Part shown: positions 5,075 to 39,571 of the stretch, piece by piece | Layout: every line of letters begins with the position of its first letter | Position numbering within the stretch: the stretch's first letter is position 1 | Sequence record: NC_073321.1 | Source of the DNA: Escherichia phage ZCEC5 | Reading direction: 5' to 3' (one strand) | Length of the DNA stretch: 43,372 nucleotides | The notes under the pieces: model-generated | The model's database searches: none | What the model was told of the DNA's origin: nothing | What the model saw: the letters and a program-made list of their open reading frames with translations, nothing else | Translations under genes and position numbers: made by a program

Positions 5075-6550
5075 ATGTTAACTATGAACGGTCAGAATCA
5101 GGGTGTTAAGACAAAACACCGGGAATGGCTGCATCACTTCGATAAATGGCAGAAGGTACGCCACGCACTGGAAGGCGACCTTATTCGCTATCTGCGCAAT
5201 GTCGGGAAGAACGAACCCGACCCGACCTACGCTGCACAGCGCCAGGAAGAATATGAGAACGGCGCTATCTGCTACAACTTCACTAAACGTACCCTGGCTG
5301 GAATGGTGGGGTCGGTAATGCGCAAAGACCCTGAGCAAATTATCCCGCCTGAAATGGAGTACCTGCTACGTAACGCCGACGGTTCCGGTGTCGGGCTGTG
5401 GCAGCACGCGCAGGACACTTTGATGGAGATTGACTCGGTGGGCCGTGGCGGGTTGCTGGTTGACGCCCCGGAGACAGCTGCGGCAACGGCGGCAGAGCAG
5501 AACGCGGGATTATTAAACCCGGTCATCGCATTCTACACCGCAGAGAACATTATCAACTGGCGCCTGACCCGCATCGGTTCAGTTAACCGTGTGACGATGA
5601 TTGTATTGCGTGAGGTGTGGGAATACTCGGAACCGGGCGCAGAGTTCGAAACAAAATTCGGTGAGCAATACCGCGTTCTCGATTTGATTGACGGGCGCTA
5701 CCGCCAGCGCATTTACCGCTTCGATGCCGAAGGTGGTGCTCAGGATGACGTAATCGAAATCTTCCCGGAACTTGGCGAACAGTTACGCGGCAAAATCCCG
5801 TTCACGTTCATCGGGGCAAGCAACAACGACGCAACCATTGACGACGCGCCTCTACTGCCGTTAGCTGAGCTTAATATCGGACATTTCCGCAACAGTGCGG
5901 ACAACGAGGAGTCCAGTTTTGTTGTAGGGCAGCCTACTCTGTTTATCGCCCCCGGCGAGAACATGAGCATGGAACAGTGGAAAGAGGCTAACCCCCACGG
6001 CGTCCGCATGGGGTCGCGTTCAGGCCATAACATTGGTTACGGCGGCAATGCGTTTCTGGTCCAGGCGGGGGAGAACAACCTCGCCAAACAGAACATGCTG
6101 GATAAAGAAAATCAGGCTATCCAGATTGGTGCGCAGCTTATCACCCCGACGCAGCAAATCACCGCTGAATCAGCACGCCTGCAACGCGGTGCTGATACGT
6201 CTGTTATGGCGACAATCGCGCGTAACGTAAGCATGGCGTACACTGATGCGTTGCGCTGGGTAGCTGCAATGCTAGGGCTACGCGAAGACACAGATATTGA
6301 GTTCAAGCTGAATATGGAGTTCTTCCTGCAACCGATGTCCGCTCAGGACCGTGCACAGTGGATGGCGGATATTAATGCAGGCTTGTTACCGGCTACCGCT
6401 TACTATGCTGCGTTGCGTAAGGCCGGGGTAACCGACTGGACAGATGAGGATATCCAGAACGCTATCGAGGATACACCGCTGCCGGTTTTTACACAGACTA
6501 CCGGGGAAATTACGGCTACAGCACAGCATGATGAAGAGGCGCAGCAATGA
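5075..6550 (+). CDS. Portal protein (putative)
   Basis: 491 aa, position after terL, size typical of portal; RBS AAGAGGA. Confidence 0.7.
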   Translation: MLTMNGQNQGVKTKHREWLHHFDKWQKVRHALEGDLIRYLRNVGKNEPDPTYAAQRQEEYENGAICYNFTKRTLAGMVGSVMRKDPEQIIPPEMEYLLRNADGSGVGLWQHAQDTLMEIDSVGRGGLLVDAPETAAATAAEQNAGLLNPVIAFYTAENIINWRLTRIGSVNRVTMIVLREVWEYSEPGAEFETKFGEQYRVLDLIDGRYRQRIYRFDAEGGAQDDVIEIFPELGEQLRGKIPFTFIGASNNDATIDDAPLLPLAELNIGHFRNSADNEESSFVVGQPTLFIAPGENMSMEQWKEANPHGVRMGSRSGHNIGYGGNAFLVQAGENNLAKQNMLDKENQAIQIGAQLITPTQQITAESARLQRGADTSVMATIARNVSMAYTDALRWVAAMLGLREDTDIEFKLNMEFFLQPMSAQDRAQWMADINAGLLPATAYYAALRKAGVTDWTDEDIQNAIEDTPLPVFTQTTGEITATAQHDEEAQQ

Positions 6551-7602
6551 GCAAGCTATCGCAGATGATTATCAGCCATCAAATATGGCTACAGAGACTA
6601 GGAACGCAAACAGCGTCGCTGTCCGTCCCCTTCGTCAATAAGATGCGTGCGGAGGTGCGCGACGCGGTGCTTAAGTTCGGTGACGACGCGCGCACAGTGA
6701 AGAAGCTGAATAAAATGCTGGCAAGCCTGGATGGCGTCCTGGATGACGTCACCGGCGACTGGAAGAGCACGATAGAGAAGAGCCTGCGCGAGATTGCCGA
6801 CTACGAGAATAAGTGGTTTATCCATACGCTGGAGGCCAACACGAAGCCGAAAACGTTCATTACTGGACCTACGGCAGAAGAACTGTGGTCGCGTATCAAG
6901 TTCGCACCACTGGCGCTGAGTAACGCACCTGTTGGTGTTATGGACCTGATGTCCGGTTGGGCTCAGACCGAGCGTAACCGCCTTGTGCGTGGCGTACAGA
7001 CAGGCTTTGTGCAGGGGCAGACAACCCGCCAAATTGTCTCTGCCGTTGTGGGTCCCGGTGGCCTGGCAGATATCTCTGAGCGCAACGTAATGACGGTAGT
7101 CCGAACAGCAGTGAGCCACGTATCGAACACGGCGCGAGATTCTGTGTACGACAGCAACAGCGATATTGTGAGCAAATATCAGTGGGTATCTACGCTCGAC
7201 AGCCGCACTTCGACTGTATGTAAGTCGCGCGACGGCCAGAAATATGACGTAGGCAGAGGGCCTATGCCCCCCGCACACCCAAACTGCCGCAGTACCACTA
7301 TCCCGGTAATCGAAGATGACTTCCTGGACTTTCTCGACGAGGGGGCTAAGCGGGCGGCACGCGGGGCGGACGGTGGTACTCAGGTAAGCGCGGACACCAC
7401 TTACTACGAGTTCCTTAAACAACAACCAGCGTGGTTCCAGGACCAGGCGCTCGGCCCGGTGCGCGGTAAGATTTTCCGCAACAGCGGTATATCACCAGAA
7501 GAGTTTCGCGTAATATCTGTAGATGGTTTCGGGAATCCGCTGACGCTTAAGCAGATGGCGGAACTCGATAAACGTGTTGCTGATTATCTGAAAGGGGAAT
7601 AA
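6547..7602 (+). CDS. Head morphogenesis protein (minor head protein, Mu F/SPP1 gp7-like)
   Basis: 351 aa, ATGA-coupled to portal; position and size typical. Confidence 0.65.
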   Translation: MSKLSQMIISHQIWLQRLGTQTASLSVPFVNKMRAEVRDAVLKFGDDARTVKKLNKMLASLDGVLDDVTGDWKSTIEKSLREIADYENKWFIHTLEANTKPKTFITGPTAEELWSRIKFAPLALSNAPVGVMDLMSGWAQTERNRLVRGVQTGFVQGQTTRQIVSAVVGPGGLADISERNVMTVVRTAVSHVSNTARDSVYDSNSDIVSKYQWVSTLDSRTSTVCKSRDGQKYDVGRGPMPPAHPNCRSTTIPVIEDDFLDFLDEGAKRAARGADGGTQVSADTTYYEFLKQQPAWFQDQALGPVRGKIFRNSGISPEEFRVISVDGFGNPLTLKQMAELDKRVADYLKGE

Positions 7603-8063
7603 TGATGGGCTTTTTCAAAATTACTGATGTACCGTCGCGTCGCGTAGTCCAGTTTGCCCGTGTGTCTGGCTCTGGCGAGAACGTGGTGTTTATTGAGGAT
7701 GAAAGTGAACTGGGTACACCAGTAGACGATATGCCGTTTGCAGATAAAACCGGTATTGCGCTACCAGCGGCGGGCATGCTTTACGAGATTCCGTATCTGG
7801 CGGACGCTGGTGACGTGTATTTCTCTGCGCAACCGCAGGACGCTGAACTGGCGGGCGGCAGCGCAACTATCACTGTCGAAGTTAAAGCCGGTAAAGCGCC
7901 ATACTCGCTGACCTGGTACAAAGACGGTAAGGAAGTGGTCAATGCCCCGGAAGAGGCTTTGTCTCTGACAGTTAATGCTGTAGGTGAATACTTCGTTAAA
8001 GTTACTGATGCCGATGGTGTAGAGGCTGTGAGTAAAGCGGCGAAGGTTACTAAGCCAGAATGA
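7602..8063 (+). CDS. Ig-like domain protein (possible head decoration)
   Basis: C-terminal Ig-like signature (TITVEVKAG...YSLTWYKDGKEV...GEYFVKVTDADG); paralogous to the 11084 product. Confidence 0.55.
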   Translation: MMGFFKITDVPSRRVVQFARVSGSGENVVFIEDESELGTPVDDMPFADKTGIALPAAGMLYEIPYLADAGDVYFSAQPQDAELAGGSATITVEVKAGKAPYSLTWYKDGKEVVNAPEEALSLTVNAVGEYFVKVTDADGVEAVSKAAKVTKPE

Positions 8064-8066
8064 TAA

Positions 8067-8093
8067 AAGGCCCCGTTAAGGGGCCTTAGTTTT
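8067..8093. terminator. Bidirectional intrinsic terminator
   Basis: AAGGCCCC-GTTAA-GGGGCCTT flanked by A-run and T-run; sits between convergent genes. Confidence 0.6.
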
Positions 8094-8316
8094 AAACTTC
8101 CACGTCTATTACCAAATCATCTGGTACGGTTATTACTATTTTATCGTTTTCATAGAATGGGTTAAGAGGCTCATTTTCAGGCTGCAGACGTAAAGTTATC
8201 TTTTTACCGCCAAGATAATTTATGTAACGAACCCAGTACCATTGGTCAAATACTTCCACCTTATCACCTGGGCATACGTCCGAGGCCTTCTTCTGATTCA
8301 TATATCTTACTGGCAT
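8092..8316 (-). CDS. Hypothetical protein (74 aa), opposite-strand accessory gene
   Basis: Perfect RBS AGGAGG, own promoter, terminated by the bidirectional hairpin. Confidence 0.55.
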   Translation of the reverse strand: MPVRYMNQKKASDVCPGDKVEVFDQWYWVRYINYLGGKKITLRLQPENEPLNPFYENDKIVITVPDDLVIDVEV

Positions 8317-8342
8317 ACATACCTCCTGTCTAAGTTAACTGA

Positions 8343-8371
8343 ATAGTAGCCTATTATGCTGGGGTGCGCAA
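8343..8371 (-). promoter_or_regulatory. Class B promoter TTGCGC-17-TACTAT containing palindrome AATAGGCTACTATT
   Basis: Near-identical copies at 16926-16954 (-), 39509-39537 (+) and 40677-40705 (+). Confidence 0.5.
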
Positions 8372-8423
8372 ACTGTTTATTTACGTATTCCAGTTATTCC
8401 ACAGAATTGCAAATGTTGGAATA

Positions 8424-8439
8424 AACTATTCGAATAGTT
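8424..8439. promoter_or_regulatory. Perfect 16-bp palindrome AACTATTCGAATAGTT (operator-like)
   Basis: Overlaps -35 of the 8438 promoter; half-sites are the same CTATT/AATAG pentamers as the promoter palindromes, inverted. Confidence 0.45.
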
Positions 8440-8466
8440 GACTTTTCACTGAAAATGTGCTAAGCT
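8438..8466 (+). promoter_or_regulatory. Sigma70-like promoter TTGACT-17-TAAGCT with TG extension
   Basis: -35 TTGACT 8438-8443; TGc immediately upstream of -10 TAAGCT 8461-8466. Confidence 0.45.
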
Positions 8467-8472
8467 CCACCT

Positions 8473-8675
8473 GAGCTTGTGAAGTATGAACAAGCGACCG
8501 CGGCGCGGGCAGGTAACGGAGCGGGACGTAAGTCCTGAGTGTAGTTACGCTGACGCGTTCGGAAGGGCCACACTCTATTTCTTGTGTAAAAAGTAACTGG
8601 TTTACTGAGATTACGCCGTTTCTATGTTTAAATGATAAGGACTAGCGCCCCGCTTTAAGGCGGGGCTTTACTTAT
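8473..8675 (+). ncRNA. Candidate ~200-nt leader transcript / small RNA
   Basis: Noncoding GC-rich stretch between promoter 8438 and terminator 8644; contains only a weak 36-codon ORF (8486-8596). Confidence 0.25.
8644..8675 (+). terminator. Intrinsic terminator directly upstream of spanin genes
   Basis: Stem GCCCCGC / GCGGGGC (7 bp) followed by TTTACTTAT. Confidence 0.5.
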
Positions 8676-8690
8676 CGAGAAAGGAGAAAC

Positions 8691-9077
8691 ATGAATCTTA
8701 AAGAAACTGTCGTAGCAGGAGCATGTTTCGCCATCCTGGCTCACGCCCACGGCATATACCAGTATCGCAGCGGCTGGAACGAAGGCCGGGCAAATCTCGT
8801 TTCGCAGCAACAGCAGAAAGCGCAGGCTGAGTTAGCGAAGAAAACACAACGGCAGCAGCAGGACGAATCAAAGGCCGCAGCCGCTGACAACGAAGGCAAG
8901 ACGAAATCAGAGGTGATTACCCGTGAAGTCGTTAAGTACATTAAAACGCCTGGTCGCAGCGTGTGCACTTTTGACCCTGAGCGCGTGCAGCTCAAGTCCC
9001 GCGCCGTCGCCAACGCCAATTCCATCCCCGGATACGACGATGATGCAGCCGCCGTGCAAACTGGCCTCGCCAAGTAG
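8691..9077 (+). CDS. i-spanin (Rz-like)
   Basis: N-terminal TM segment then Q/A/K-rich coiled-coil region; overlapped by o-spanin ORF. Confidence 0.7.
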   Translation: MNLKETVVAGACFAILAHAHGIYQYRSGWNEGRANLVSQQQQKAQAELAKKTQRQQQDESKAAAADNEGKTKSEVITREVVKYIKTPGRSVCTFDPERVQLKSRAVANANSIPGYDDDAAAVQTGLAK

Positions 9078-9186
9078 CGATGCCGACGAGGATTTGGCTA
9101 TCGACGTTCAGAACGCCGAATGCGTACGGCAACTGAGACTGAAAGTGTTCATGTTGCAGGATTACGTGAGGAATATTCTGGAATAG
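8923..9186 (+). CDS. o-spanin (Rz1-like outer-membrane lipoprotein)
   Basis: Lipobox LLTLSAC, Pro-rich mature region; GTG start in alternate frame overlapping the i-spanin 3' end. Confidence 0.7.
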   Translation: MKSLSTLKRLVAACALLTLSACSSSPAPSPTPIPSPDTTMMQPPCKLASPSSDADEDLAIDVQNAECVRQLRLKVFMLQDYVRNILE

Positions 9187-9268
9187 TTGCCTTGCATGTT
9201 GGAATAATTTATTCTTGACATGTAAATCCGGGTGGCCCGGATTCCAACGTCCAGGGGACATACTGACT

Positions 9269-9970
9269 ATGAATCGTTTTTTACGTTATCCGTTCCAGGA
9301 AGAAGCTGGGGCAGAAGATAAAGCTAGCGGCGGTGACGCGCCGAAAATGTTCACCGCTGAAGAAGTTCAGGCGCTGATTGAGAAAGAAGTTGCCGGGCTT
9401 AAGGCTAATCAGGAAGCATTGCTGGCGGAGAAGAAAGAAGCCGCTCGTAAAGCAAAAGAAGCCGAAGAAGAACGGCAGCGCGCACACCAGGAGGCGTTAA
9501 AAGCCGCCGGTAAGATGGACGAGTTCGAAAAGACGATTCGTAGCCAGTATGACCCGGTGTTAGCTGAGAAAGATGGCCGCATCTCTAAAATGGCGGAGCG
9601 CATCCTCGGCAGCGAACGTAAAGCGGTGTTAGGCTCTTTCGCTGGTGACTTTATTACCCCGGAAGCAGTGGACATCCTCGCACCGTTCGTTAAGACTGAG
9701 TTCGAAGGTGATGATGTGGTTACTAAGTTTGTCGGCGCAGACGGTAATGTAATCACGACTGACCCGGAACAGTTCCGCAAATACCTGCGTGAACACAAAG
9801 CGTTTTCGCATTTGATTAAAGCAAATGCAGCTTCCGGCGGCGGGGCTTCCGGTAGCAAAGGCGGCGGGGCCGCACCAGCGTTTAAAGACATGAGTGAAGC
9901 AGAGCGTTTAGCCCTGTATAAATCGAACCCTGCCGAATTTGAACGGCAACTTAAAGCCCTGAGGAAATAA
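9269..9970 (+). CDS. Scaffolding protein (putative)
   Basis: Charged, A/E/K-rich coiled-coil-like protein immediately upstream of major capsid; ATG 9269 with RBS AGGGGA. Confidence 0.6.
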   Translation: MNRFLRYPFQEEAGAEDKASGGDAPKMFTAEEVQALIEKEVAGLKANQEALLAEKKEAARKAKEAEEERQRAHQEALKAAGKMDEFEKTIRSQYDPVLAEKDGRISKMAERILGSERKAVLGSFAGDFITPEAVDILAPFVKTEFEGDDVVTKFVGADGNVITTDPEQFRKYLREHKAFSHLIKANAASGGGASGSKGGGAAPAFKDMSEAERLALYKSNPAEFERQLKALRK

Positions 9971-9972
9971 TA

Positions 9973-11022
9973 ATGGCAATTACCACTATCGGCGATATCG
10001 TAACTGGCAACATCCCGGTCCTGGCGTCTTATATGACAGAGGACCCGGTAGAAAAAACCGCGTTCTTCCAGTCTGGTATTCTGACCCCGACTCCGTACGC
10101 CGCTGAGATTGCCCGCGGCCCGTCCAACATCGCCAACATTCCTTTCTGGAAAGCGATTGATACTTCTATTGAGCCTAACTACTCGAACGACGTGTATCAG
10201 GACATCGCTACCCCGCGTAATGTGCAAACCGGTGAGATGATGGCCCGCGTTGCGTACCTGAACGAAGGTTTTGGTCAGGCGGACCTGACTGTTGAACTTA
10301 CCAGCCAGAACCCGCTGCAATCCGTGGCTTCTCGTCTGGATAACTTCTGGCAGCGTCAGGCACAACGCCGTCTTATTGCTACCGCACTCGGTCTGTACAA
10401 CGACAACGTAGCCGCTACCGATGCTTACCACGAGCAGAACGACATGGTTATCGACGTGTCCGCTACTCTGGGCTTCGACTCCGGCGCGTTCATCGATGCT
10501 ACCCAGACTATGGGTGACGCTCTGATTGGCAACGGCGGTGAAGTGTTGGGCGCTATCGCGATGCACAGCTTCGTTTATGCGCAAGCACGTAAGCAACAGC
10601 TTATCGACTTTATCCGTGACGCCGACAACAACACCATGTTCGCCACCTACCAGGGCTACCGCGTGATTGTTGACGACAGCATGACCGTGGTCGGAACTGG
10701 CCCGAGCCGCAAGTTCATCTCCATCATCTTCGGCAACGGTGCTATCGGCTACGGAGAAGGCAATCCGGTCAAACCACTGCACTACGAGTATGAAGCGTCT
10801 CGTGGTAACGGCGGCGGCGTAGAAACCCTGTGGACCCGTAAGACCTGGTTGATGCACCCGCTGGGTTACAGCTTCACCAGCGCGGTAATCACTGGCAACG
10901 GCACCGAGACTATCGCCCGCTCTGCTTCATGGCAGGACCTGGCGAACGCCTCCAACTGGAACCGTGTGGTTGACCGTAAGCATGTACCGATTGCCTTCCT
11001 GGTAACTGGTGTCGGGGCTTAA
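9973..11022 (+). CDS. Major capsid protein
   Basis: 349 aa following scaffold, followed by terminator hairpin; size and position typical. Confidence 0.8.
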   Translation: MAITTIGDIVTGNIPVLASYMTEDPVEKTAFFQSGILTPTPYAAEIARGPSNIANIPFWKAIDTSIEPNYSNDVYQDIATPRNVQTGEMMARVAYLNEGFGQADLTVELTSQNPLQSVASRLDNFWQRQAQRRLIATALGLYNDNVAATDAYHEQNDMVIDVSATLGFDSGAFIDATQTMGDALIGNGGEVLGAIAMHSFVYAQARKQQLIDFIRDADNNTMFATYQGYRVIVDDSMTVVGTGPSRKFISIIFGNGAIGYGEGNPVKPLHYEYEASRGNGGGVETLWTRKTWLMHPLGYSFTSAVITGNGTETIARSASWQDLANASNWNRVVDRKHVPIAFLVTGVGA

Positions 11023-11037
11023 GGTTAAGCTATAATC

Positions 11038-11066
11038 GAGAGGGACTTCGGTCCCTCTTTTCATTT
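11038..11066 (+). terminator. Terminator/RNA-stability hairpin after capsid gene
   Basis: GAGAGGGAC-UUCG-GTCCCTCTT with UUCG tetraloop, then T-rich run. Confidence 0.45.
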
Positions 11067-15114: not shown

Positions 15115-15140
15115 AAGGCCCCGAAAGGGGCCTTTTTCTT
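15115..15140. terminator. Bidirectional intrinsic terminator
   Basis: AAGGCCCC-GAAA-GGGGCCTT followed by T5 on + and T4 on -. Confidence 0.6.
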
Positions 15141-16910: not shown

Positions 16911-16925
16911 TGTTGGTGTGAGTGA

Positions 16926-16954
16926 ATAGTACCCTATTATATTGGGGTGCGCAA
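16926..16954 (-). promoter_or_regulatory. Class B promoter TTGCGC-17-TACTAT driving the Imm/metallophosphoesterase island
   Basis: Shares 30/33 positions with the promoter at 8339-8371. Confidence 0.5.
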
Positions 16955-17019
16955 GTAATGTGATAGAATAATTTTGCGCCTAGTGTCGCACACGAAAAGC
17001 GGGTGGTTCCCGTCTGGCG

Positions 17020-17055
17020 CATTTACCATTTACCATTAACCTGTAACCTCTTAAC
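17020..17055 (+). repeat. Five tandem heptamer repeats (CATTTAC CATTTAC CATTAAC CTGTAAC CTCTTAAC)
   Basis: Direct tandem 7-8-mers immediately upstream of the tail assembly chaperone gene. Confidence 0.4.
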
Positions 17056-17069
17056 CAAAGGACTAAAGA

Positions 17070-17486
17070 ATGAAACTTTCTGATTTTTATTTCGAAGAGA
17101 AAGCACTGGTAGGCAAGAAGATGCCGATTCTGCTGCCAAACGGCGAAGACTCCGGTGAGTGGCTTAACGTCGTAAGCCCTGACGCAGATGTCGCCGTTAA
17201 AGCGGGGCGTGCTTTCATTATCGCGTACCGACGCGGGTTGGCGCGCTTTGAAGAACTGGAAAAAGCCGCCAAAGAATCCGGCGACTATACTGAATATAAT
17301 TTGGCCATTAACGAACTGGCGGAAGACCTCAACCGGCAACTTGCGGCGGAAGTCGTAAACGGCTGGAGCTTTGACGAGCCTTTCTCTAAGGAAGCGTTTA
17401 ACAAGTTGCTCGACCAGTTCAAGGCATTAGGCACACAGGTAGCCGCGTTCCATAACGCTGAGCGCAAAGCATTACAGGAAAAGTAG
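17070..17486 (+). CDS. Tail assembly chaperone (gpG-like)
   Basis: 138 aa acidic protein directly upstream of tape measure; followed by -1 frame ORF. Confidence 0.55.
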   Translation: MKLSDFYFEEKALVGKKMPILLPNGEDSGEWLNVVSPDADVAVKAGRAFIIAYRRGLARFEELEKAAKESGDYTEYNLAINELAEDLNRQLAAEVVNGWSFDEPFSKEAFNKLLDQFKALGTQVAAFHNAERKALQEK

Positions 17487-17851
17487 ACGCGCTGTACAGG
17501 TTCGCCTCCTACGAGTTTGTGGATAAGCATAAAATCATAGAGTTTGATTCTATAGCCGACGGTCACGAACAGGCGCTTATCGCAATGGGTGTAATCGATA
17601 AGAAAAAACGTGCAGCGCGACGGGGTGGGCCAGAATGCCCGCCCCTTTTTATATCCACCTTTGAGATGTACTGTGACATTAAGTTTACGCGACACGTGCG
17701 CGAGGACGCTGTAGTATTGTTCGCAAGAGAATCCGTTACTTGGCAAGACCTGAAAGCCTATCTCGATGTTACGCAAAAACAGCTTAGCCTGTTCGAGATA
17801 GACATTATCATGGGCTTAGAAGCAATCTTTGAAGGTAGAAACAATGACTGA
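17462..17851 (+). CDS. Tail assembly chaperone -1 frameshift extension (gpGT-like), candidate
   Basis: -1 frame open from 17462, overlaps last 8 codons of the G ORF and ends overlapping the tape-measure start; weak slippery site CAG GAA AAG TAG. Confidence 0.35.
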   Translation, partial: AQSITGKVDALYRFASYEFVDKHKIIEFDSIADGHEQALIAMGVIDKKKRAARRGGPECPPLFISTFEMYCDIKFTRHVREDAVVLFARESVTWQDLKAYLDVTQKQLSLFEIDIIMGLEAIFEGRNND

Positions 17852-29149: not shown

Positions 29150-29455
29150 TTATATTGTTGGTGTATGACTACTATAATAGTTCGCTATTAGGTCGTCAAC
29201 CTGTTTAAACGAACCAACGACAAAAACATTCGCGCCGCGTTTACGCATACGCTCGTGCTCACGTAACTGGTGCGGGTCTGGCTTCGTGTTTTCGTCTTTC
29301 TTAACCTCGACGAACCAGACGATGCCGCCGGGGAGAATTACCAGCAGGTCAGGAGCGCCCACTCTATTTTCGTACGACAATTTGCGTACAAGGCCCCCCA
29401 TGGCCTCAAATCGCTCTTTTGCGTATTTCTGAACAACTCCTTCTTTAGTTGCCAT
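29150..29455 (-). CDS. VRR-NUC domain nuclease
   Basis: GAPDLLV...VEVKK...Q...G..VFVV signature of the VRR-NUC PD-(D/E)xK fold; ATG 29455 chosen to avoid overlap with HNH gene. Confidence 0.7.
   Translation of the reverse strand: MATKEGVVQKYAKERFEAMGGLVRKLSYENRVGAPDLLVILPGGIVWFVEVKKDENTKPDPHQLREHERMRKRGANVFVVGSFKQVDDLIANYYSSHTPTI
29171..29199 (-). promoter_or_regulatory. Class A promoter TTGACG-17-TATAGT with palindrome AATAGCGAACTATT in spacer
   Basis: Same architecture as promoters at 33083-33111 and 35913-35941. Confidence 0.5.
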
Positions 29456-29477: not shown

Positions 29478-29936
29478 CTATTCTCTCGCCGCGCAGACCA
29501 CTTTGTACGCTTCCTCCTTTGTCGAAAAAGCACCGAGATATATGCGCTTCCCGTTCACGGTTATCCTTGCCCTAAATTTACCTCTTTCAGGCGATACCCC
29601 CTTTAAACATGAGGTGTTGTCGCGCCTTACCCTTGCGTTTCTGGTATTCTCCCACCTGGTCGCTAACCGCAGGTTGCAAATCCGATTATCCGCACGGTCG
29701 CCGTTTATATGGTCAACCTCCTCCGGCGGCATATCACCGTACACCCACCACCAAGCCAATCGGTGTGCCGGATAGTGGACGTTTCTGAACACAACTTTCA
29801 TATATCCAAGGTCAGTGTAGTTATTTATAACTTTCCCCGGAACAGACCGCGGGCCACTTCGCTTAACCCATTTGAATACCCCAGTATCAGGGTCGTACGA
29901 CAGAAAATCTTTTATATCGCCACTTGGTGCTTTCAT
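29478..29936 (-). CDS. HNH homing endonuclease with AP2-like DNA-binding domain
   Basis: DHINGDRADNRICNLR HNH motif; C-terminal AP2-like segment; N-terminal YDPDTGVFKW shared with two paralogs. Confidence 0.7.
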   Translation of the reverse strand: MKAPSGDIKDFLSYDPDTGVFKWVKRSGPRSVPGKVINNYTDLGYMKVVFRNVHYPAHRLAWWWVYGDMPPEEVDHINGDRADNRICNLRLATRWENTRNARVRRDNTSCLKGVSPERGKFRARITVNGKRIYLGAFSTKEEAYKVVCAARE

Positions 29937-30018
29937 AATACACACCCCTCACGTTTCGTGTGTTCAATCCCGCAGCGCGGACAGATTCGACAATCTTCTT
30001 CATAAAACCAGTAAATTT

Positions 30019-33024: not shown

Positions 33025-33082
33025 TTGATTTCTCGCTTTTCAGTTTCAGTTTACTCCGGGATCTGCCCGGCCAGTGATTAGA

Positions 33083-33111
33083 ACTATAATAGCTAACTAT
33101 TCATGTGTCAA
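33083..33111 (-). promoter_or_regulatory. Class A promoter TTGACA-17-TATAGT with palindrome AATAGTTAGCTATT
   Basis: Consensus -35, 17-bp spacer carrying the palindrome. Confidence 0.55.
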
Positions 33112-33300: not shown

Positions 33301-34538
33301 TCTAAATCCTCCTCTGTAACTTGATTCCACTCAGGACGTGTGTCATCCGCCGTTGCGACGCATGGCGCACCGGGCTTACGGGTAATGAAGTCTTTCAGTT
33401 CTTCTTCCGGTACAATTTTAACCGCTTCGGTCGGTGTCATAAGAACTACCTTTTGCAGCATAGTACCGTACTTCTCGAATACTGCGTCGGTATCTTTCCA
33501 CGCACGATTACCGGGGCGACCTTCAACCAGTTTGTATCCTGGCACTTTCTTACCTGAATGCAAAGCAGCAGCCATCGCTTTCTCAACCTTGTCGATGTGC
33601 TGGCGCAACAACGGCAGCTTCTCATACTCAGCGACGAGTTGCTCTGGCGTAAGTTCCAGCGCACAGTCGTCCTCAAGTTCTTCCGCCAGTACCGCGTTAA
33701 CGGTTTTTGTACGAGCTGCGCACTGTTCCGAGAAACGACACCACTGACAACCATCTACCGACGGCTTGAAGTCCGACGCTTTAAGGTTCTTCTTGCCGCG
33801 GTTATAGGCATCAAGTGCTAACAGTGCACGTTTCTGTGCGAACTTAGCGAACAGTTCCAGACCTTCAACCGAGATGTCCCACTCCGACGCGCCACCAGCG
33901 TACGGCTGAAAGATGACCAGACGAACGGTTGTTATGTTATAACGTCTCTTGAGTCGGCGATAAACACCGAGAGCGTAAAGCATAAGCTGCTTGTTTTCTT
34001 TCGCTTCGACACGATGTCGTCCTGTTTTCAGGTCGCCAATAATGAGCATGTACTCGTCGGTGTTAGCCAGTTCCTGAACGGCAACAAGGTCGGCGGTTCC
34101 GAAGGTTTCAACGCCTTCGTAACCTGGGTGCAATACCTCAGTAAGGTTAACGCGCATCTCGAGCTTGGCGTAAGTAGCTACATCGATAATCGGTTTGCAG
34201 TAGTCTGTGTACTTGCGCACCTGCTCAATCATATCCGCCGTAATCAGTACCGCGCCTTTCATCGGGCTGATTAGCGCCTTAATCTGACCTTTACCCTCAT
34301 CCAGCACGTAAGCGCCGACTTCACGCTCTAACGGCAACGCAGTGCCTTTTATATACTGGTTTAGATGGACCTCAGCTATAGTGTGACATGCGGTTCCTGT
34401 AACTGCGGATTTACCAGACGTGTTAGGAATATCTTTTTCACAGGCCAGTGATGCAGCGCATGACAGCCACTTTTTAGCCCCGGACGGCGACAGTAAAGCG
34501 TGTACGTCGTTATTGCCACCGCGTTCTTTTAGAATCAT
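33297..34538 (-). CDS. DUF2800-like PD-(D/E)xK nuclease with C-terminal Cys cluster (Cas4/RecB-like)
   Basis: N-terminal LLSPSGAKKWLSC, catalytic-type GDLKTG, C-terminal CQWCRFSEQC. Confidence 0.7.
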   Translation of the reverse strand: MILKERGGNNDVHALLSPSGAKKWLSCAASLACEKDIPNTSGKSAVTGTACHTIAEVHLNQYIKGTALPLEREVGAYVLDEGKGQIKALISPMKGAVLITADMIEQVRKYTDYCKPIIDVATYAKLEMRVNLTEVLHPGYEGVETFGTADLVAVQELANTDEYMLIIGDLKTGRHRVEAKENKQLMLYALGVYRRLKRRYNITTVRLVIFQPYAGGASEWDISVEGLELFAKFAQKRALLALDAYNRGKKNLKASDFKPSVDGCQWCRFSEQCAARTKTVNAVLAEELEDDCALELTPEQLVAEYEKLPLLRQHIDKVEKAMAAALHSGKKVPGYKLVEGRPGNRAWKDTDAVFEKYGTMLQKVVLMTPTEAVKIVPEEELKDFITRKPGAPCVATADDTRPEWNQVTEEDLE

Positions 34539-35032
34539 TTCTCGTCTCCGTTAACTGTAAAGCCGTATTTAATTTCGGCTTGCCTACGAGCCTTAGCTGC
34601 GTTCTCTAATTTATCGTAAGCCCCTAAATAAATCGGCGTACCGTCTACATAAATTCTTGCAACCCACTTACCGCAGCGTTTATGAAACCCAACACCTTTA
34701 ACCCCTGAAGTATTGTCAGCCCGTACGCTGGTGCCGTGTGCGATGCTACCTCGACGCATTTTTATAAGATTTTCTATCCTGTTATCAGTTCTATCTTTAT
34801 TTTCGTGACGAATTACTTCCCCCGGCGCTATCGGCCCGTTAAACATCTCCCAAACAACGTGGTGGATAAGTTTAGTAGCACCGTTAAAACGCAGTATTTT
34901 AAATTCACTCCCATCGTTATCCACCCTCGTACTGCCGGCTTCCTGTCCTATTTTTACAGATTTTGACGGGCTTATTTTCCAAAACAATTTACCTGTATCA
35001 CGGTCGTAGTCAAAAACTTCACGCCAATTCAT
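34535..35032 (-). CDS. HNH-AP2 homing endonuclease paralog (degenerate HNH motif)
   Basis: N-terminal FDYDRDTGKLFWK; HNH region reads IRHENKDRTDNRIENL; C-terminal AP2-like YLGAYDKLENAAKARR; ATG 35032 overlaps upstream stop. Confidence 0.6.
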   Translation of the reverse strand: MNWREVFDYDRDTGKLFWKISPSKSVKIGQEAGSTRVDNDGSEFKILRFNGATKLIHHVVWEMFNGPIAPGEVIRHENKDRTDNRIENLIKMRRGSIAHGTSVRADNTSGVKGVGFHKRCGKWVARIYVDGTPIYLGAYDKLENAAKARRQAEIKYGFTVNGDEK

Positions 35033-35301
35033 GCCAAAGTCTCCCACTGGTCAATTAAATGTCGTGTCTGGTGATGGCAATGCATGGCCCACCCGTACAT
35101 CGACTCGAAGACATAAAAGTCAGGTTTGGCGAAAGTCGTGCGCTTAATCTGCGACACGTGACGGCCTATATCTTTAGGCCGTGGTACTTTGCCTAAGTAC
35201 GCCATCTCTTCCATCTGGTGCGCACCGGACGGCGCACGCAACAGCCACAACGCCTCTGTGTTATCCCGCCTGTCAACGGCGCGGTAGAGTTGGTAAACCA
35301 T
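35029..35301 (-). CDS. Hypothetical protein (90 aa)
   Basis: RBS GAGGG; His-rich segment HCHHQTRH. Confidence 0.45.
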   Translation of the reverse strand: MVYQLYRAVDRRDNTEALWLLRAPSGAHQMEEMAYLGKVPRPKDIGRHVSQIKRTTFAKPDFYVFESMYGWAMHCHHQTRHLIDQWETLA

Positions 35302-35881: not shown

Positions 35882-35912
35882 TTGTTTCTCTCCTCTCGTT
35901 TGGTATGGGCTA

Positions 35913-35941
35913 ACTATAATAGCGAACTATTCACGTGTCAA
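35913..35941 (-). promoter_or_regulatory. Class A promoter TTGACA-17-TATAGT with palindrome AATAGCGAACTATT
   Basis: Divergent from the Cro-like gene promoter. Confidence 0.55.
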
Positions 35942-38537: not shown

Positions 38538-38771
38538 TTATTCCAGGTCTTCTAAAGTAGCGGTCATTCCGCGAACTTCAGCAACAGCACTATATTTCCC
38601 GCCAACATTTTTCACGACACCAGATTTAACCAGCACTTTCAACGACCCTTCAATAATGGCTGAACTATAGTACTTAAAATAACTACGGCGCAAGTCGATA
38701 ACGCTGCACGACCCTTTTTTACGTGTTAACGAAACTACCGCCGTAAATACGCGTGACTGGAACTCGGTCAT
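38538..38771 (-). CDS. Hypothetical protein (77 aa) with C-terminal TLEDLE tail
   Basis: ATGA-coupled; C-terminus resembles those of the primase and DUF2800 proteins. Confidence 0.45.
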   Translation of the reverse strand: MTEFQSRVFTAVVSLTRKKGSCSVIDLRRSYFKYYSSAIIEGSLKVLVKSGVVKNVGGKYSAVAEVRGMTATLEDLE

Positions 38772-38938
38772 TTAACGTTCTCCTTAATCCACGCTTCCAC
38801 TTTCTCCGGGTCAAACGTACCAGGCTGCCGGCGGCCCATAATGCGGATACAACAATCTGGGAACTTCCCGCTCTTTAACCAGTTATTCAGTGTGCGACGA
38901 GTAACCCCGATACGCTCGGCTACCTCATTCTGCGTCAT
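38768..38938 (-). CDS. Small HTH DNA-binding protein (AlpA/excisionase-like)
   Basis: MTQNEVAERIGVTRRTLNNWLKSGKFP; ATG 38938 with RBS AAGGAG (ORF-track frame 38768..39016). Confidence 0.5.
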   Translation of the reverse strand: MTQNEVAERIGVTRRTLNNWLKSGKFPDCCIRIMGRRQPGTFDPEKVEAWIKENVK

Positions 38939-39077
38939 CTTTAATCTCCTTAATTGTTTCCCATGCGAACGCTGTAGCTGTGCCGTATTTATTAGGGCAG
39001 TATCTGCTCTCGCCATGTCCGTTAAACCACGCTTCTATCAGCAACTCTTTCAACTGTTCTTCTGTCAAAGTAACCAT
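38925..39077 (-). CDS. Hypothetical small protein (50 aa), first gene of leftward early operon
   Basis: ATG 39077 with RBS GAGGG; the ORF-track TTG start at 39110 overlaps the -10 hexamer. Confidence 0.4.
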   Translation of the reverse strand: MVTLTEEQLKELLIEAWFNGHGESRYCPNKYGTATAFAWETIKEIKDDAE

Positions 39078-39443: not shown

Positions 39444-39508
39444 ACCAAGTAATAAGAATAAAGGCACAACCTTCCCTAAAGAATCACAACGGCAACGTAA
39501 CTAATCCC

Positions 39509-39537
39509 TTGCACACCCCAACATAATAGGATACTAT
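39509..39537 (+). promoter_or_regulatory. Class B promoter TTGCAC-17-TACTAT with palindrome AATAGGATACTATT
   Basis: CTTGCACACCCCAACATAATAGGATACTATTCA, near-identical to the 8339 and 16923 promoters. Confidence 0.55.
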
Positions 39538-39571
39538 TCACTTATCGAAACGAGACAGAGGAGTGAGAGTT

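Follow-up and report, generated by a model that had tools for sequence, protein, structure and literature searches.

The late spanin-scaffold-capsid operon of Escherichia phage ZCEC5 is preceded by a promoter and by an untranslated leader which, on comparative evidence, is a conserved structured RNA whose helices are supported by covariation. The window, by which we mean the whole stretch of DNA analyzed (NC_073321.1, 43,372 nucleotides (nt)), comes from a Kagunavirus-type siphophage of the subfamily Guernseyvirinae. What is new is an undescribed RNA fold in a promoter-proximal leader with a terminator-like hairpin. We put at about even the chance that promoter and folded leader together form a cis-acting 5' leader, or attenuator, of the late operon.

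The promoter and the structured leader

Forty-eight loci were fetched through the spanin protein and their upstream regions were aligned. Leaders of the ZCEC5 type (the Kaguna type) are 92-98% identical to that of ZCEC5, with the exception of locus L027 (81.5%), and this high identity persists where the spanin protein is only 67-75% identical. In bins of 100 nt, identity over the leader is 91-100% for most Kaguna-type relatives and 75-92% for L027, whereas the flanks of the leader are variable (21-89% over the upstream 300 nt and 59-99% in the spanin gene). Jersey-type leaders are shorter (about 186 nt) and diverged, with the same layout. More widely, 421 bases around the leader match 179 phage records, mostly of Escherichia and Salmonella phages, at 80-99% identity, all except one at 90% or more. 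The elements of the region are as follows:

8394-8424, upstream of the promoter: inverted repeat TTATTCC-N17-GGAATAA, candidate regulator-binding site
8426-8437, abutting the -35 element: perfect palindrome CTATTCGAATAG, read from the sequence
8438-8466, + strand: sigma-70-type promoter with extended -10 element (single match in the window, conservation)
8472-8474, + strand: predicted transcription start, from promoter geometry (6-8 nt after the -10 element)
8475-8480 with 8490-8495, + strand: hairpin P1, GCUUGU/ACAAGC with a 9-nt loop, near the 5' end
8486-8596, + strand: 36-codon open reading frame (ORF) from the ORF list, judged non-coding
8498-8562, + strand: irregular 65-nt hairpin P2-P3-P4 (covariation)
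8498-8500 and 8502-8507 with 8554-8562, + strand: P2, one pair changed on both sides
8510-8517 with 8544-8552, + strand: P3, six pairs changed on both sides
8522-8527 with 8532-8537, + strand: P4, GUAA loop, three pairs changed on both sides
8563-8569, + strand: single-stranded AAGGGCC, which with the preceding stem strand reads UUCGGAAGGGCC
8570-8633, + strand: AU-rich, weakly structured spacer (GC content 0.33) containing the conserved AGAUUACGCCGU at 8608-8619
8634-8676, + strand: long hairpin adjoining the Shine-Dalgarno (SD) sequence (terminator scan, covariation)
8634-8639 with 8671-8676, + strand: lower stem of that hairpin, GAUAAG/CUUAUC, covarying with the Jersey type
8643-8654 with 8659-8670, + strand: upper stem, covarying with the Jersey type
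8647-8666, + strand: terminator-like stem-loop of 8 pairs (7 G-C) with a loop of 4; tail UUUACUUAUC at 8667-8676
8681-8686, + strand: SD sequence AAGGAG of the i-spanin gene, read from the sequence; the ribosome-binding site is annotated at the same place in relatives

A covariance model (R1) built from 14 Kaguna-type leaders detects a single full copy in the window, at 8473-8680 (269 bits), and retrieves Jersey-type leaders at about E 1e-14. When Kaguna- and Jersey-type leaders were taken together (34 sequences, in an alignment fitted to the model), 98.1% of cells formed standard pairs, as against 34-41% when the partners were slid by 1-3 columns; 21 of the 46 pairs had changed on both sides, as against 0-4 in the slid controls, and none of 500 shuffles reached the observed values. 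Because this alignment had been fitted to the model, the count was repeated on a plain MAFFT alignment of the Kaguna-type leaders alone. Here 97.8% of cells were paired and 5 pairs had changed on both sides (0-1 in slid controls), 4 of them in P2-P4. Between the Kaguna and Jersey types, four of the six P1 pairs have changed on both sides. P2, P4 and the final hairpin contain conserved G-U pairs that are compatible with the + strand only. An earlier note on this region had described its promoter, leader and terminator but had missed this conserved RNA structure.

The untranslated stretch (8473-8680) is 208 nt long and the leader measures about 218 nt up to the i-spanin ATG at 8691, in agreement with the approximately 200 nt that the earlier note had placed between promoter and terminator-like hairpin. 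That note had also called the leader GC-rich, which does not hold for the whole: its GC content is 0.50 as compared with 0.507 for the window, and only 8495-8568 is GC-rich (0.66), while 8569-8643 is AT-rich (0.33). The spacer carries indels in L027 and in Jersey-type leaders. Three words are conserved, or nearly so, in both types (UUCGGAAGGGCC, AGAUU(A)CGCCGU and AUGUUUA). The AAGGGCC segment is likewise largely conserved, with single substitutions at its GGGCC end in four loci (L027, L035, L048 and L041), and CGGAAGGGUC recurs in a further leader type, the SP-031 type.

The terminator-like stem-loop at 8647-8666, with its tail TTTACTTATC, is the best + strand site in a terminator scan of 7000-10500, which bears out the earlier placement of an intrinsic terminator before the ribosome-binding site. 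It has the form expected of such a terminator, a GC-rich stem-loop directly followed by a U-containing tail; its hairpin energy is -15.8 kcal/mol and its T-tail score of 3.0 resembles that of the operon-end terminator at 15115-15134 (3.3). The final hairpin as a whole ends 4 nt ahead of the SD sequence.

The promoter consists of a -35 element TTGACT (8438-8443), a 17-nt spacer (8444-8460) that includes the TG of the extended element (8458-8459) and a -10 element TAAGCT (8461-8466), just where the earlier note had read it. As a bare motif it is weak evidence, because TTGACN{14,16}TGNTANNNT, which matches once in the window, is expected 0.17 times by chance and occurs at least once in 15 of 100 shuffles. 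A generic promoter scan did not call the site, the -10 element fitting the consensus at only three of six positions. Its description as a good promoter is defensible only when the extended -10 element and its conservation are counted. Among 46 distinct relatives, the -35 element, TG and TAAGCT hardly vary and the spacer keeps its length, whereas free variation is seen in the sequence of the spacer and at the base following TG. Jersey-type phages retain TAGACT-17-TGyTACGCT. This comparative pattern, which is that expected of a functional extended -10 promoter, is what makes the promoter convincing. From its geometry the RNA is predicted to begin 2 nt ahead of P1.

Upstream of the promoter, and absent from the earlier account, is the inverted repeat TTATTCC-N17-GGAATAA, which is unique in the window (0.02 expected by chance) and is kept in Jersey-type and SP-031-type loci. 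The palindrome that separates it from the -35 element is nearly invariant in Kaguna-type relatives (a single substitution in 4 of 36) and partly kept in the Jersey type. Inverted repeat and palindrome together probably bind a regulator. GGAATA repeats also precede the capsid-operon promoter of Salmonella phage St162 (L066 26810-26870) and, with the inverted repeat and palindrome, suggest a common operator for a regulator. A -10-like repeat overlaps the start site and P1 in two leader types (TAAGCT-N5-TGAGCT in the Kaguna type and TACGCT-N3-TACGCT in the Jersey type), and is without equivalent in the Cornellvirus and SP-031 types. The window also holds a family of promoter-like repeats distinct from the leader promoter, TTGCGC/TTGCAC/TTGACA-N17-TACTAT/TATAGT around a GAATAG..CTATT palindrome, at 8340-8371, 16923-16954, 39508-39548, 29170-29199, 33082-33111 and 35912-35941; these face leftward genes and rightward early genes.

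A weak 36-codon basic ORF, also pointed out in the earlier note, does lie within the leader (8486-8596), and the idea that it encodes a small basic protein gains something from its annotation as a hypothetical protein in phages Schulenburg, Bas70 and others, from a frame that stays open in 27 of 36 distinct Kaguna-type leaders and from an open frame, reading AFGRAxLYC, in Jersey-type leaders. Its substitutions, however, are not those of a coding sequence: variable sites fall on codon positions 1, 2 and 3 in the numbers 14, 18 and 10, with no third-position excess. Nor are start and frame conserved, since L011 has GTG in place of the ATG, six loci (L002, L008, L021, L026, L015 and L027) carry frameshifting indels and no equivalent start was found in the other leader types. 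Moreover, the ATG sits in the P1 loop without an SD sequence, and L027 retains the base pairs yet alters the peptide at most positions. By these comparative measures the 36-codon ORF is not a gene, and we consider a protein product highly improbable. Whatever the role of the leader, the recurrent annotation of this ORF as a hypothetical protein is corrected as false.

Four versions of the leader in the Guernseyvirinae

Across the Guernseyvirinae, the locus upstream of the i-spanin gene always bears a long structured leader, which exists in four mosaic versions:

Type A, ZCEC5 type (Kaguna): lower stem GAUAAG/CUUAUC
Type B, Jersey type: lower stem UAUACG/CGUAUA
Type C, Cornellvirus type (Pantoea phage AH01; Salmonella phages TS6, VSiP, SE1, St162 and Shemara): lower stem GUAAUG/UGUUAC
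Type D, SP-031 type (FSL SP-031 and GRNsp27, loci L059/L060): lower stem GUAAUG/UGUUAC

In all four, the last element is a long hairpin whose lower stem covaries and which directly adjoins the SD sequence, and a terminator-grade tail is present in type A only, the T-tail scores of types B-D being 1.8-2.2. On this comparison, the feature conserved across types is the hairpin, not the U tail. Type C has a near-consensus TATAAT promoter and an approximately 300-nt leader of different sequence, the folds of which are conserved (10 compensatory pairs among 5 sequences). In four loci, a model of types A and B gives a weak match (8-11.5 bits, E 0.12-0.8), correctly positioned, to the type C 5' domain, in which a short hairpin and, after it, a long one with a GUAA loop are aligned. 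In St162 and AH01, the leader stands before the two spanin genes only; next come a terminator and a gene in reverse orientation, and another promoter, with GGAATA repeats, then introduces the scaffold and capsid genes.

Type D is chimeric. Its promoter and 5' domain, including CGGAAGGGUC, are A/B-like and are joined to a type C 3' half, so that the recombination joint lies inside the leader of FSL SP-031 and GRNsp27. An exchange on a larger scale is seen in Salmonella phage SE124_1FR, which has a Jerseyvirus backbone approximately 90% identical to that of SE2 and yet carries a type A leader. The cassette concerned (L064 31500-33500) extends from the end of the Hoc-like gene, across the leader, as far as the spanin gene and is 88-96% identical to ZCEC5; beyond it, SE124_1FR shares with ZCEC5 only a few short patches. 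These identities indicate a recent exchange between genera at the leader locus. No regulator gene was visible moving along with the SE124_1FR cassette and no leader-linked protein partner emerged, which fits a cis element working with host factors. Outside these four versions, Serratia phage Eta has the same gene order with an unrelated leader of approximately 110 nt, and Pseudomonas phage Aurca01 has no such gap before the spanin gene.

Gene order and other sites of the late region

The promoter and leader occupy a 374-nt intergenic region. Around it the genes and terminators are arranged as follows, those from the i-spanin gene onward being taken from the ORF list and the annotation of relatives:

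5075-6550: portal
6547-7602: head morphogenesis protein
7602-8063: Hoc-like decoration protein
about 8064-8091: bidirectional terminator
8092-8316, minus strand, leftward: 74-codon ORF
8691-9077, + strand: i-spanin gene, first gene of the operon
8923-9186: o-spanin gene, embedded in the i-spanin gene
9215-9970: scaffold
9973-11022: major capsid protein

Head-tail and tail genes run on after the capsid gene up to the terminator at 15115-15134. The leftward slot between the Hoc-like gene and the leader (8092-8316, minus strand) is variable cargo across relatives: in ZCEC5 it holds a 74-residue protein (PHROG 8705, unknown function), in Schulenburg a sliding-clamp-like protein and in Shemara a metallophosphatase-like protein, and in SE2 it is empty. 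Elsewhere, two paralogous HNH endonuclease genes (PHROG 99; 29481-29945 and 34538-35047, minus strand) lie among the replication genes, and relatives carry HNH genes at other positions.

A second late-operon leader is located upstream of the tail assembly chaperone gene (window 16955-17070). Its promoter has an extended -10 element (TGATAGAAT) and is followed immediately, at 16975-17021, by a three-way junction of approximately 47 nt, with an outer stem GCGCC/GGCGC and the hairpins GUG-UCGCA-CAC and GCGGG-UGGUU-CCCGU. PVP-SE2 and St162 carry compensatory changes in each of the three stems, and the AUUUACCAUUU tail after the junction is not conserved.

Two strong terminator-like hairpins on the + strand lie within the late operons. 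The first (11038-11059) comes directly after the major capsid gene; the second (17622-17645; 9 pairs, 8 of them G-C, with tail UUUUUAUAUC) is inside the second tail chaperone ORF, before the tape measure gene. There is no excess of promoter-like sites in the late region.

Possible roles of the leader

We favor a model in which the leader acts in cis on the operon that it precedes. Host sigma-70 RNA polymerase would start near 8473 from the extended -10 promoter, and a protein bound at the inverted repeat upstream probably modulates this promoter. The nascent RNA would fold P1 and then the 65-nt P2-P4 hairpin, followed by the AU-rich spacer, and the long final hairpin, with its intrinsic-terminator-like top and moderate U tail, would then form. 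Some polymerases would stop at about 8670-8676, leaving an RNA of approximately 200 nt, and others would read into the operon, so that the leader would work as a leaky attenuator, determining how strongly, and perhaps when, the spanin and capsid genes are expressed. In addition, the leader hairpins may protect or shape the 5' end of the mRNA. A hairpin 2 nt from the 5' end has the geometry that protects transcripts from 5'-end-dependent decay.

Several observations weigh against this model: (i) the start site and termination are predictions only; (ii) we found no alternative pairing or effector able to regulate read-through; (iii) the cross-type covariation counts depend on a model-fitted alignment, and the fold of the single sequence is no better than that of shuffles (z = -1.4, + strand); (iv) T-tail scores are low in the other leader types (1.86 in Jersey, 1.8-2.15 in Cornellvirus/AH01 and 1.89 in SP-031, the tails of each having 3 U in their first 8 nt), and because the U tail is poor in these three types the conserved role of the final hairpin may not be termination; and (v) the Cornellvirus-type leaders, with their near-consensus TATAAT, precede only two spanin genes, an arrangement that would also fit an RNA that is itself the product.

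The searches for a known family, a partner or a switch gave the following. Rfam at gathering scores, run on the whole window, returned no leader family; at E up to 10 on 8300-8720 it gave only weak terminator-like matches, none of them in the 5' domain. ARAGORN found no tRNA or tmRNA in the leader. As to a host origin of the leader, blastn gave no match in 5,426 E. coli genomes; as to a second leader copy, models R1 and R2 give one full copy per genome, all other matches being terminator halves. The longest complementarity between the leader and the rest of the phage is 13 nt (E = 0.11). A competing antiterminator helix was looked for by folding with the 3' arm withheld, and nothing convincing appeared: in the consensus folds the terminator 5' arm pairs only through a 4-bp GGGC/GCCC helix, and only in the Jersey type. 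A helix closing the 5' end on the SD sequence, proposed by RNAalifold in three leader types, had duplex energies no better than those of random 22-mers (fraction of controls as good or better, 0.03-0.68). Thus neither an exclusive helix nor a known aptamer or leader family, as in a riboswitch or a classical attenuator, was found. By inspection, the CGGTAG core is missing from the best words resembling the ops element of RfaH, and the word closest to boxA differs from it at 3 of 8 positions. Literature searches returned no description of the leader element, nor of late-gene control in Kagunavirus or Jerseyvirus; one RNA-seq study of a Kagunavirus gives gene-level timing only (PMC12645636).

The earlier note had likened the region to the lambda pR'-6S RNA-tR' arrangement controlled by Q antitermination and had proposed a search for a Q-like or other antiterminator. 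The layout does correspond: a sigma-70 promoter with a TTGACT -35 element stands directly before lysis and structural genes, and an untranslated transcript of approximately 200 nt would end at a hairpin terminator before the first late gene (promoter at 8438-8466, hairpin and tail from 8647, ATG at 8691). The control by Q does not. No Q, N or other antiterminator family was recognized when 33 small ORFs were scanned against PHROG and Pfam, and none is annotated in Schulenburg, Bas70, SE124_1FR, SE2 or St162; an unrecognizable analogue is possible. The only clear regulator among the 33 is an 82-residue HTH_17/excisionase-like protein (38771-39016), a candidate for the factor that would bind the inverted repeat. 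Other differences from lambda are that any pause-type -10-like element would be weak at best and lacks conservation, that the ZCEC5 leader is an RNA of several covarying helices, and that sister phages have lost the U tail. The resemblance to pR'-6S-tR' is architectural only.

Other systems offer partial parallels. The lambda pL N-leader, with nutL and an RNase III hairpin before N, is similar in being a leader of approximately 220 nt with an upstream RNA element and a long irregular hairpin near the first gene, but ZCEC5 has no boxA/boxB and no N homologue. Phage HK022 putL is an element of approximately 70 nt with two stem-loops just downstream of PL (PMC9378689). Like it, the ZCEC5 element would place two stem-loops right after a promoter and upstream of terminators, with no dedicated phage factor recognizable; unlike it, P1 and P2-P4 span +3 to +90 (approximately 90 nt) as one short and one long hairpin, differing from put in size and shape, so that the parallel is one of analogy. 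With R1 run on the whole HK022 genome, filters off, no significant similarity to put was found (best match 10 bits, E = 0.2). That best match (L061 36892-36995) lies just after gene Q in the late region and not near the early promoters with put. Leaky intrinsic terminators and attenuators share with ZCEC5 a GC-rich 8-bp stem, a 4-nt loop and a U-containing tail between promoter and first gene, whereas ZCEC5 has no competing antiterminator helix, leader peptide or Rfam cis-regulatory match. By analogy, the closest functional counterparts would be the lambda N-leader and HK022 putL, neither of which shares sequence or a tested property with the ZCEC5 leader.

Three other roles of the RNA have to be set against leaky attenuation. 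The final hairpin may not be mainly a terminator, the leader serving instead in mRNA processing, stability or translation, with its 5' hairpins acting against RNase E and the long SD-adjacent hairpin being an RNase III site or a translational operator. We regard this as possible, if doubtful. It would account for the fact that a long hairpin with a covarying lower stem stands beside the SD sequence in all four types while the U tail does not, and is consistent with the position of P1 about 2 nt from the predicted 5' end and with two further late leaders, that at 16975-17021 and the one upstream of the St162 scaffold gene, which begin with a GC hairpin and have no conserved U tail. Yet the coaxial stem is only approximately 17 bp and the lower stem 6 bp, short for RNase III, the conserved 65-nt P2-P4 domain is left unexplained, and the ZCEC5 hairpin does have a terminator-grade tail. 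Rather unlikely, in our judgment, is a stable phage non-coding RNA of approximately 200 nt, ended or 3'-protected by the hairpin and acting in trans on host or phage targets, with read-through into the spanin genes incidental. An island of very high conservation between variable flanks, transfer as a cassette, a multi-helix RNA with covariation and a terminator-like end in ZCEC5 would all suit such a product, as would the Cornellvirus-type versions, in which a near-consensus -10 element stands before only two small genes. Small RNAs that depend on Hfq usually have a long U run, however, which the ZCEC5 tail is not, and the sister types have lost even this U tail. Complementarity within the window is at most the 13 nt given above, the E. 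coli genomes hold no match, and the final hairpin always abuts the spanin SD sequence, which suggests a role in cis.

It is improbable that P1 and P2-P4 are a platform for antitermination, either put-like on RNA polymerase or a nut-like loading site for a phage factor, which would carry transcription through the leader hairpin and through the terminators inside the late operon. Two stem-loops of approximately 90 nt directly after a promoter and before a terminator are what such a platform might look like, the Cornellvirus type gives a weak match to the same arrangement of two hairpins, and -10-like hexamers follow the -10 element in two leader types. The reading gains a little from the terminator-like sites at 11038-11059 and 17622-17645 within late operons; essential genes follow the former, and promoter-like sites are not in excess. 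Partial terminators after capsid genes are, however, common without antitermination; the -10-like repeat is absent in two types, the types differ strongly in their 5' domains, with no conservation of the loops, and neither similarity to put, by the lack of a significant model match in HK022, nor a Q- or N-like protein was found. Equally improbable is the specific proposal that 8475-8562 modifies RNA polymerase, independently of factors or with host factors, as an element put-like in function and unrelated in sequence, and that the 16975-17021 leader does likewise for the tail operon. If this were true, a polymerase modified by 8475-8562 would let late transcription pass both the leader hairpin and the 11038-11059 terminator, and the 16975-17021 leader would serve a tail operon that contains the strong hairpin at 17622-17645.

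The locus is a defined, covariation-supported candidate control element for the spanin and capsid genes, comprising a promoter with an inverted repeat, a leader that is absent from RNA family libraries and a hairpin adjacent to the ribosome-binding site. The leader alignment is ready for a new RNA family entry and the four mosaic versions allow a natural swap experiment. Kagunavirus and Jerseyvirus are among the most often isolated E. coli and Salmonella phages considered for therapy, and they encode no recognizable late regulator. The leader would count as a new phage RNA regulator if it does control read-through, or if its action is in trans.

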